In this document: positions 8,823 to 10,676 of the stretch, piece by piece
Layout: every line of letters begins with the position of its first letter
Position numbering within the stretch: the first letter of the stretch is position 1
Assembly: GCA_003141315.1 (NCBI GenBank)
Contig: PLLP01000006.1
Span: 86,641 to 150,640, forward strand
DNA from: Phycisphaerales bacterium
GTDB lineage: Bacteria > Planctomycetota > Phycisphaerae > Sedimentisphaerales > Anaerobacaceae
Reading direction: 5' to 3'
Length of the DNA: 64,000 bases
Translations under genes and position numbers: made by a program
The notes under the pieces: generated by a model
Databases searched by the model: none
What the model saw: only the letters and a program-made list of their open reading frames with translations
What the model was told of the DNA's origin: nothing

Positions 8823-9941
8823 ATGGCCAAAGATTTTCATGCTGAGCCGTTTGACAGAGAAACAAAGCTGAAACTCGAGATATTTAGGGGATATATCAGG
8901 GAATGGCTGCCTGTGTTTCTTTCCAAAAGGACATTCAAAGCGATTACTTTATATGACTTTTTTGCTGGTCCCGGCAGGGACATAGAAGGTGAAAAGGGTT
9001 CGCCTCTTATAATAATTGATGAAGTGGAGGCGTATCTTAATAATCCGACAACGCCCAAGGCACAGGGCGTGGAAATCAAACTATATTTCAACGATGACGA
9101 CAAATCAAAGTACATAGTATTAAAAGAGGCGATTGAAAAAGAGGGGATAAAGGGATTTTTCAGTGTCGAGGTAGAAAACAAGGATTTTACTGCGGCCTTT
9201 AATGATAAGTTTTCTGCGATAGGCGCCGCCGATACAGCAAATCTTGTCATTCTCGACCAGAGCGGGATAAAACACATTACTCAGGACATATTCAAAAAAC
9301 TGATGGCCTGCCGTTCGACGGATATTTTGTTCTTTATATCGTCTGCTACGGTAAAGAGATTCGTGGGGGAAAATTGTATAGACCAATACCTGCCAAGTAT
9401 TTCCAAAGAGCAGATCGACAATCTCGATGCGGGTCATATTCATAGGTTTATATGTAATGAGTATTACCGAAAATTAGTGCCGACCGGAAAAGATTATTAT
9501 CTTTCGTCGTTTTCGATTAAGAAGGATTCGAACGTTTATGGGCTTATATTCGGCTCAGGAAGTTTATACGGTCTGGAAAAGTTTCTAAGGGTATGCTGGG
9601 CTATCGACCCAAAGACAGGCGAGGCAAACTATAATATTGATAAGGATGACTTCAGGGACGAAGAAAGCATGTTCAAGGAGCTCAATGTAATTCATAAAAA
9701 AGAAGAGTTCCAAAAAAATCTAACAGCCGAACTTAAGAAAAAGCCTATGACAAATAAAGAGCTTTACCGATATTGCCTTGAGAGCGGTTTTTTGCCGAAA
9801 CATGTAAATGAAATACTGAAGACCTTGCAGAAAAATGGTAAACTTATTGTTTCGCCAGAAGGTTCTAAGGGATTTTATATCGGCTGGGATTACTATAGCG
9901 ACAAGAAGGATAAAACGGTAACCTTAAGAGTGAAAGAATAG
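8823..9941 (+). CDS. Three-Cys-motif partner protein (TcmP-like), with a C-terminal winged-helix-like segment
   Basis: The N-terminal pattern (ETKLKLEIFRGYIREWLPVF, then LYDFFAGPG) matches my recollection of the TcmP family (TIGR04474). It sits immediately upstream of a Gp37/Gp68 gene, the defining context. AT-rich. Confidence 0.55.
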   Translation: MAKDFHAEPFDRETKLKLEIFRGYIREWLPVFLSKRTFKAITLYDFFAGPGRDIEGEKGSPLIIIDEVEAYLNNPTTPKAQGVEIKLYFNDDDKSKYIVLKEAIEKEGIKGFFSVEVENKDFTAAFNDKFSAIGAADTANLVILDQSGIKHITQDIFKKLMACRSTDILFFISSATVKRFVGENCIDQYLPSISKEQIDNLDAGHIHRFICNEYYRKLVPTGKDYYLSSFSIKKDSNVYGLIFGSGSLYGLEKFLRVCWAIDPKTGEANYNIDKDDFRDEESMFKELNVIHKKEEFQKNLTAELKKKPMTNKELYRYCLESGFLPKHVNEILKTLQKNGKLIVSPEGSKGFYIGWDYYSDKKDKTVTLRVKE

Positions 9942-9953
9942 AGGCCCCTTTAT

Positions 9954-10676
9954 ATGGGAAACACTAAAATAGAGTGGACAGAATCAACGTGGAATCCTGT
10001 TACAGGTTGCACAAAAATAAGTACAGGGTGCAAGAACTGCTATGCGGAACGTATGACAATTCGCCTTCACTCTATGGGACAGTATAATTATAGGAATGGT
10101 TTTAAGCCGACTTGTCATCCTCATACGCTTTCTTTGCCACTGAACTGGAAAAAGCCTCAGATGATTTTCGTAAATTCCATGAGCGATCTATTTCATGAGA
10201 AAATACCGGTTGATTTTATTCTCGACGTGTTTGATGTGATGAAAAAAACGCCTCATCACCAGTATCAGGTTCTTACCAAACGGGCGGAGCGACTTGCCTC
10301 GCTTTCAAAGATTCTCCCATGGAGAGAAAATATTTGGATGGGTGTGACTGTTGAGGCGGCTGATTACAAACACAGGATAGATTGTCTTAGACAAACAACC
10401 GCACATATAAAATTTCTATCTTTAGAGCCGTTATTGGGCGATCTTGGCGATTTAAACTTAGATGGCATTGATTGGGTTATTGTTGGTGGCGAGTCGGGAA
10501 CTGGAGCAAGGCCGATTAAACCCGAGTGGGTACGAAATGTACAGCATGAGTGCTGCTACCAAAACGTGGCTTTCTTCTTTAAGCAATGGGGCGGCGTAAA
10601 TAAAAAGAAAAATGGACGATCATTAGACGGACGCACATGGGATGATATGCCTCCTCAAGCACTGGCCTTTAAATGA
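9954..10676 (+). CDS. Phage Gp37/Gp68 family protein (DUF5131)
   Basis: [31 protein letters not shown] N-terminus, LTKR, GESG and FFFKQWGG motifs, all typical of PF07505. Starts 12 nt after the preceding gene. Confidence 0.75.
   Translation: [240 protein letters not shown]

Follow-up and report, generated by a model that had tools for sequence, protein, structure and literature searches.

Within a 64,000-nt stretch of the genome of a Phycisphaerales bacterium (assembly GCA_003141315.1, contig PLLP01000006.1, forward-strand positions 86,641 to 150,640; hereafter the window, whose numbering is used unless another contig is named), a tcmP gene and a gene of the DUF5131 family (Gp37/Gp68, three-Cys) form a real, intact, horizontally acquired operon of the long type, catalogued in PADLOC-DB as PDC-M30. 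The tcmP gene (8823-9941) encodes 372 amino acids and the DUF5131 gene (9954-10676) encodes 240. Both are on the plus strand, each is the longest open reading frame (ORF) at its place, and in the ORF listing they are separated by 12 nt, the spacing given in a preliminary description made from the letters of this DNA. The products are, respectively, a predicted methyltransferase-fold protein and a predicted radical S-adenosylmethionine (SAM) protein. Tentatively, and with rather less than even confidence, we suggest that together they constitute a self-contained DNA-targeting conflict or defence module, an accessory system of the restriction, modification or abortive-infection kind. Our confidence in the identity of the two parts is much higher than our confidence in this role.

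The preliminary description regarded the pair as an uncharacterised cassette. This holds for its function, which is uncharacterised in the literature that we searched. It does not hold for the cassette as such, since PADLOC-DB already lists it as PDC-M30 (components A and B) and PDC-M41 (component B), which the two proteins match at 388-401 bits. The catalogued systems have the same two-gene architecture, both genes match almost end to end, and both component models are matched by adjacent genes. PDC-M30 and PDC-M41 are candidate systems only, and in the literature searched they occur only as names in the PADLOC output tables of two Pseudomonas surveys. Neither name appears in the main text of the 2024 preprint by Payne et al.

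The TcmP and DUF5131 proteins

The product of the first gene is a member of TIGR04474, which it matches with 134.1 bits (cut-off 53), residues 13-261 covering profile positions 2-262 of 263. The adjacency to a three-Cys PF07505 gene from which this family is named is also present, and the partner likewise scores well above its own cut-off. The match to PADLOC model PDC-M30A reaches 387.7 bits. The protein represents a long subtype, with 372 amino acids, a GMT-like winged helix-turn-helix and a DQSG motif, whereas most relatives in neighbouring genomes have 272-306 amino acids and no winged helix. The long subtype comprises 855 clusters at 50% identity (E<=1e-10). Two features read from the sequence earlier were recovered: the string LYDFFAGPG lies at residues 43-51, and the C-terminal segment that had been called winged-helix-like (residues 284-346) matches Pfam PF22560, a GMT-like winged helix-turn-helix family, with an E-value of 3.7e-9.

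An AlphaFold2 model of TcmP built with 70 homologues has a predicted local distance difference test score (pLDDT) of 93.2 and a predicted template modelling score (pTM) of 0.92. Searched against the PDB with Foldseek, it gave 252 matches at E<=1e-3, and the matches listed are mostly class I SAM methyltransferases with a probability of about 1.0. They include O-methyltransferases, histamine N-methyltransferase, Trm1, TrmK, TYW4, Trm5a, KsgA and the DNA adenine methylase M.BseCI. The template modelling (TM) scores of these matches are only 0.3-0.5, and the match is therefore to the fold and not to any particular methyltransferase family. Based on the model, we confidently predict a class I SAM-methyltransferase fold, with the Rossmann-like core, the glycine-rich motif I and the acidic residue after strand 2 that define the class.

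Conservation agrees with this assignment. Across 74 diverse TcmP proteins of all subtypes, the universal residues are K17 and Y24 in the N-terminal helix, motif I (D45-x-F-A-G-x-G51) and an acidic residue past strand 2. In the window protein these last two are D45-F-F-A-G49-P-G51 and N90-D91 at the end of strand 2. At the position of motif IV, D145 is present in 100% of the 74 sequences and is followed by proline in 94%, usually then by an aromatic residue and glycine (DP[YFW]G); this TcmP and its subfamily instead have DQSG (D145-Q-S-G148). A parallel exists with the amino-methyltransferases that carry a (D/N/S)PP(Y/F) motif IV and modify N6-adenine or N4-cytosine or form m2G. TcmP shares with them the class I fold, the DxFAGxG motif I, the acidic residue after strand 2 and a D-P-aromatic-G motif IV after strand 4, but it lacks the second proline, has DQSG in this subfamily, and matches no Pfam methyltransferase family at E<=10. 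These motifs resemble the cofactor and base pocket of an amino-methyltransferase from which the second proline is missing.

The TcmP core is not covered by any Pfam model. At E<=10 the only match of any kind to a methyltransferase family was an insignificant one to RlmJ (E 0.15) in a single short-type TcmP, and searches of PDB sequences with the single protein and with a profile returned no solved relative. We also looked for a hypervariable target-recognition block, and rejected this idea because variability is distributed over the length of TcmP without forming a distinct block. Taken together, the model and the profile matches give good support to the prediction that TcmP binds SAM, has a methyltransferase fold and carries a winged helix at its C-terminus.

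The presence of several RNA methyltransferases (Trm1, TrmK, TYW4, Trm5a and KsgA) among the structural matches raises the question of whether the pair modifies tRNA or rRNA, and combinations of a radical SAM enzyme with a methyltransferase are common in tRNA hypermodification. These RNA enzymes match no better than small-molecule or DNA methyltransferases do (TM 0.3-0.5), however, and both the patchy, mobile distribution of the pair and its winged helix are a poor fit to a housekeeping RNA role. We therefore regard an RNA-modifying pair as very unlikely.

The second protein matches PF07505 over the full profile (positions 1-243 of 243) with 343.9 bits, against a gathering cut-off of 28.9, as well as PHROG 2045 (E 4e-96) and the PADLOC models PDC-M41B (401.2 bits) and PDC-M30B (393.7 bits). 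The N-terminal cysteines described previously are present with the spacing C19-x6-C26-x2-C29, and FFFKQWGG occupies residues 207-214. Among 69 homologues, all three cysteines are invariant, as are C54, C200 and the segment G178-G-E-S-G182.

The key evidence for the nature of this protein is its homology to TIGR04471, radical SAM mobile pair protein A (E 3.1e-30, 105.3 bits). The equivalog cut-off of that model is 355 bits, so that membership in TIGR04471 was rejected and the DUF5131 protein is a homologue only. BLASTP against protein A of a Bacteroides ovatus plasmid gave 31% identity over 201 residues (E 1e-29). In the alignment the DUF5131 cysteine loop, CX6CX2C, lies opposite GCT---IGCPYCYA, the canonical CX3CX2C of protein A, and is longer by three residues. 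The barrel motifs (WMGVTV, EPL and IDW.I.G.E.G) align as well, and both proteins occur in mobile gene pairs. This homology to a canonical CX3CX2C protein across a three-residue gap leads to the prediction, well supported at the sequence level, that DUF5131 is a radical-SAM-superfamily protein with a cluster loop lengthened by three residues; cluster binding and SAM cleavage are predictions only.

The partner in the radical SAM mobile pair is not TcmP. It is protein B, likewise a radical SAM protein, which carries a canonical CX3CX2C of its own (NPYVGCPHACRYCYA) and looks SplB/COG1533-like. We observed the arrangement of protein A beside protein B on the B. ovatus plasmid NZ_CP072245.1 (L135, 2465-4005). 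Since protein A pairs with a second radical SAM protein, DUF5131-type enzymes pair either with TcmP or with a second radical SAM partner.

Structure prediction was less informative. The AlphaFold2 model of DUF5131 has a pLDDT of 75.6 and a seven-strand barrel-like fold of seven beta/alpha units, in which the cysteine loop lies between strand 1 (residues 11-14) and helix 1 (29-40), the place expected for a radical SAM protein. Foldseek returned nothing at E<=1e-3; the best natural matches were to NifB, a radical SAM enzyme, and were weak (E 4e-3 to 2e-2, TM 0.34-0.43). A PDB search with the single sequence returned no relative, and one with the 69-sequence profile found no radical SAM chain at E<=10. 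The homology to TIGR04471 is accordingly the stronger evidence for the radical SAM assignment. The earlier proposal of an Fe-S enzyme acting with a nucleotide-binding and DNA-binding partner stays a prediction, one that is consistent with both models and with the motifs.

The term DUF5131 itself occurs in one paper in the literature searched, the description of RadicalSAM.org, where it is Megacluster-5-2 beside the MJ0683-like proteins (5-1) and spore photoproduct lyase (5-3) (PMC9477430). DUF5131 thus shares a megacluster with spore photoproduct lyase (SplB) and MJ0683-like proteins. A weak similarity is seen in the N-terminal cluster loop (hhalign probability 20%). The cysteine spacing differs, and DUF5131, which is much shorter, relies on a partner with a methyltransferase fold. 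DUF5131 was rejected as a spore photoproduct lyase by sequence, as the 69-sequence profile found no match to solved structures of that enzyme at E<=10.

Spore photoproduct lyase acts on DNA, and this neighbourhood is one argument for a role in DNA-damage repair or tolerance. On this reading, radical chemistry by DUF5131 would undo or process a lesion, in the manner of spore photoproduct lyase, TcmP would flip the lesion, and expression would be tied to DNA damage. Two of 138 neighbouring genes in homologous loci are Ada-type alkylation-repair genes, which also fits. In Mycobacterium tuberculosis, Rv2735c is co-transcribed with recA-recX, and Rv2734 and Rv2735c group with recA and recX among the genes induced by mitomycin, which would favour repair if these two genes are a TcmP-DUF5131 pair. 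The absence of a match to solved spore photoproduct lyases speaks against this explanation, as do the patchy, plasmid- and phage-borne distribution of the pair and its residence in the same kind of slot as restriction-modification (R-M) and abortive-infection genes. Damage control of expression is likewise unsupported: no LexA-type box was recognised upstream of tcmP here, and in 74 homologous upstream regions none of five LexA-box classes was enriched over shuffles (GAAC-N4-GTTC, 3 observed and 7.8 expected; CTGT-N8-ACAG, 7 and 7.8), with only one perfect GAAC-N4-GTTC, in locus L049. In this genome the sequences upstream of lexA and recA were inspected as well, and no shared palindrome was recognised. 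LexA/SOS control was hence set aside as unsupported for this clade, with the reservation that the boxes searched may not be the lineage's own LexA motif. On balance a repair function is unlikely.

The insertion, its control region and the dispersed repeats

The chromosomal setting of the pair was compared with that in related genomes. In a same-genus genome (G001), comM (90% identical) is followed by 163 nt and then by sequence homologous to window 10888-11091. Relative to G001, the window therefore has an insertion of about 3 kb (7914-10887), made up of a repeat tract, the cassette and about 200 nt of filler that bears repeats. This sister genome offers an empty site for the cassette. The genes flanking the pair in the window are shared by none of 14 related loci, and PF07505 never occurs at this locus in related genomes. 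Conversely, on the metagenomic contig L037 a cassette with 93% nucleotide identity over window 8783-10684 lies between unrelated flanks. These comparisons back the earlier idea of a mobile islet.

Composition is also in line with acquisition. The genome (25 contigs, 2.35 Mb) has a guanine-plus-cytosine (GC) content of 47.7%, compared with 39.9% for tcmP and 42.9% for the DUF5131 gene, so that the AT-richness noted previously is real but moderate. Among equal-sized windows of the genome, the pair falls in the lowest 4% for GC and the non-core islet 7795-11308 in the lowest 0.8%; the insertion of about 3 kb has 40% GC. Both tracts flanking the pair are non-coding and filled with repeats, as had been described. 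The neighbouring ORFs that were scanned encode a TIR protein, ComM, an extracytoplasmic function (ECF) sigma factor, a pilin-like protein and a WYL regulator, and a putative anti-sigma ORF matched no Pfam family. No phage genes were found among them, again as first reported. A prophage remnant was rejected because these neighbours include no phage structural, replication or integration genes and the insertion consists of repeats and the pair only.

The cassette appears to carry its own control region. A possible promoter, read from the sequence, consists of TTGCTT (8697-8702), an 18-nt spacer and TATAAT (8721-8726) on the plus strand (8697-8726), and L037 and L033 have similar promoter-like elements in the corresponding position. 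It was not listed by a consensus scan because its -35 hexamer matches at only 3 of 6 positions. Downstream, on the same strand, is a conserved 5' leader (8737-8785) made up of a 21-mer (GGCCGGAAGAGATTCGCACCT, 8737-8757), near-invariant in related cassettes, and a 9-bp hairpin or palindrome (ATTCTTCTG / CAGAAGAAT, loop GTTCTATTA, 8759-8785). L033, L037, L040 and L041 carry the same 21-mer or a nearly identical one, although the TcmP proteins are only 65-95% identical. Two compensatory pairs in the hairpin were found in L033, and two to three overall, among five sequences only.

The leader folds no better than shuffled sequences (z -1.09), has no Rfam match at E<=1, and is not conserved in more distant long-type loci. 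We record it as a putative conserved regulatory region. Most relatives have a further 50-70 nt, including a TTGCCG-TC-CGGCAA hairpin, which the window lacks. Across five related cassettes the conserved unit extends from the possible promoter to about 15 nt past the stop codon. Based on these comparisons, a self-contained, horizontally acquired operon with its own putative promoter and leader is well supported.

The left part of the insertion (7929-8681) is a non-coding composite of dispersed repeats, with two perfect 46-nt direct repeats (8404-8449 and 8497-8542). The right-hand filler (10692-10887) contains a short dispersed repeat module at about 10720-10808, including GGCGGACCTTCGGC at 10738-10751. 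Long copies of parts of the tract are found on seven other contigs of this genome (C19, 62776-63521; C10, 1224-2046; C20, 10006-10413; C12, 52426-53448; C16, 81247-81802; C5, 40332-40635 and 43614-43928; C25, 20647-20867), together with about 50 short modules. The genes that adjoin long copies include a type I R-M pair, HsdM and HsdS (GC 0.38 and 0.34), and an N6/N4 methylase fused to Mrr; at other long copies there are an AIPR abortive-infection protein, a DUF3644 gene with an unassigned gene, and a KAP NTPase. Shorter modules flank a DUF2321 gene with an HNH endonuclease. In six of nine long-copy loci the repeat adjoins an ORF with a GC of 0.42 or less, compared with 8.5% of all ORFs (binomial P about 3e-5, a post hoc test on our own reading of the loci). 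Foreign cassettes may have inserted repeatedly at sites marked by the dispersed repeats. Restriction and abortive-infection genes of this genome share such repeat-marked slots with the pair.

A further pair of genes was seen with the same repeat modules on its flanks, at C18 16061-17271: a UDG-superfamily protein (GC 0.33) and a PDDEXK_3 (PD-(D/E)XK) nuclease (GC 0.38), wedged between ORFs that we read as leuD and leuC from their N-terminal sequences.

Distribution and proposed role of the pair

The relatives examined comprised 41 related genomes, 25 of them of high quality. PF07505 is encoded in 21 of these (15 of the 25 high-quality ones), and all ten adjacent partners that were scanned pass TIGR04474, although they represent differing subtypes (272-393 amino acids) and differ in gene order. 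In a scan covering one genome per species, more than 589 DUF5131 loci were recovered. Among the best 80 of these, a TcmP-like ORF adjoins DUF5131 in 71; of the nine loci without one, four are at the end of a contig. The same best 80 loci, in which DUF5131 is 58-73% identical to the window protein, belong to Planctomycetota, Acidobacteriota, Chloroflexota, Nitrospirota, Actinomycetota, Bacillota, Bacteroidota, Ignavibacteria, several proteobacterial classes, Verrucomicrobiota, Gemmatimonadota and the archaeon Methanoregula. A natural TcmP::DUF5131 fusion of 611 amino acids also exists (P0052). The two genes are one unit, and their pairing is obligate.

There is no conserved third gene among the 138 immediate flanking genes: a census of these found 148 Pfam families, none of them in more than three loci. 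Close cassettes diverge in step, with TcmP/DUF5131 identities of 95/92, 77/80 and 68/72%, so that we rejected the notion that TcmP always evolves faster than its partner. Only L033 is discordant (65/92%), which suggests an exchange of the TcmP module.

DUF5131 is found in 426 plasmid records, 164 of them conjugative, and in 176 phage records; conjugative plasmids carry the pair as well. In the temperate Gordonia phage Easley, gp38 is a DUF5131 protein (54% identical) and gp39 a long TcmP with the same winged helix, and both genes lie between the integrase and the immunity repressor. This interval is where actinophage prophages keep defence genes that are expressed during lysogeny. The phages Sbash and RcapNL encode longer DUF5131 proteins that are 30-40% identical, and no TcmP-like neighbour is annotated nearby; Easley is thus the only one of three phage loci inspected with an annotated TcmP-like neighbour. 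In the literature searched, TcmP appears in gene tables only. One of them, an expression table of Sinorhizobium meliloti, has the TcmP gene SMa2243 next to the Hna defence gene SMa2245 (PMC12445080).

We propose that TcmP and DUF5131 could act as one enzyme on DNA. TcmP would bind DNA through its winged helix and present a flipped nucleotide in a methyltransferase-type pocket formed by DxFAGxG and DP[YFW]G (DQSG in this subfamily), and DUF5131 would use a [4Fe-4S] cluster and SAM for radical chemistry on the presented nucleotide. Judged from its context, the pair would be an accessory conflict module; it is carried by chromosomal islets, plasmids and temperate phages. Support for a defence role comes from context only, namely the repeat-marked slots shared with R-M and abortive-infection genes, the lysogeny region of Easley, plasmid carriage, the low-GC TIR gene 2.8 kb away, and the listing of an S. 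meliloti TcmP gene next to Hna.

Several observations weigh against a defence role or against the enzymology proposed for it. Most homologous loci lie among housekeeping genes and not in defence islands, and, by our estimate from the top-25 tallies, only some 10% of the immediate neighbours are defence-like. The identity of 58-73% that DUF5131 retains across phyla and archaea is unusually high for a defence effector. The association with repeats is post hoc, and AT-rich repeats may merely accumulate beside AT-rich DNA. The structural model of DUF5131 has only moderate confidence, and Foldseek returned weak matches to it. Finally, no experiment on any member of the pair was found in the literature searched.

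Carriage on mobile elements could also mean that the pair marks DNA on behalf of its carrier, either by an unusual base modification that shields phage, plasmid or island DNA from restriction or as an epigenetic mark. The methyltransferase motifs of TcmP would suit such a function, as would the plasmid records, conjugative ones included, and the phage records, in which early or replication modules often hold the gene, close to DNA methyltransferases (Sbash gp66/gp69, RcapNL gp39/gp36). Sbash and RcapNL, however, have no annotated TcmP-like neighbour and their proteins may do something different, since of the three phages only Easley has an annotated TcmP; moreover, the chromosomal copies are solitary and unlinked to mobility genes. 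Marking of mobile DNA is in our judgement quite improbable.

Returning to the conflict or defence module, a more specific version would be a new DNA-targeting immune or modification enzyme, in which the methyltransferase-fold subunit flips a base and the subunit related to spore photoproduct lyase makes a radical-derived modification or lesion. We consider this a doubtful, speculative extension; to our knowledge, no known restriction-modification or defence system uses such radical DNA chemistry.

DUF5131 is a named radical SAM subgroup without an assigned reaction, with close homologues in more than a dozen bacterial phyla and in archaea. Finding the substrate of the pair would assign a function to thousands of genes and might reveal new nucleic-acid chemistry. 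The instance described here says nothing decisive about the substrate. It is a clean and compact object of about 2.0 kb, with its own putative promoter and leader and defined insertion boundaries.

Other features around comM

Beyond the right end of the insertion we noted a candidate small-RNA unit (10929-11089). A promoter-like element, TTGCAA-16-TATAAT extended by TG (10929-10956), precedes a predicted transcript of about 100 nt and an intrinsic terminator at 11056-11079 followed by a T run. The unit has no Rfam match. It is 74% conserved beside comM in a same-genus genome (L130, 10485-10693), where the terminator stem is kept and the loop is changed.

On the other side of comM, 2.8 kb from the pair, lies the low-GC gene for the TIR protein (4588-6030, minus strand, 480 amino acids, GC 37.6%). 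Its N-terminus matches TIR family PF13676 (E 6e-21), with PADLOC matches to PDC-S66 and ThsB-like models, and its C-terminal 340 residues have no Pfam or PADLOC match. A tblastn search of three related comM regions (L130-L132) found no homologue, and for this reason the TIR gene appears to be another low-GC insertion beside comM that is specific to this strain.

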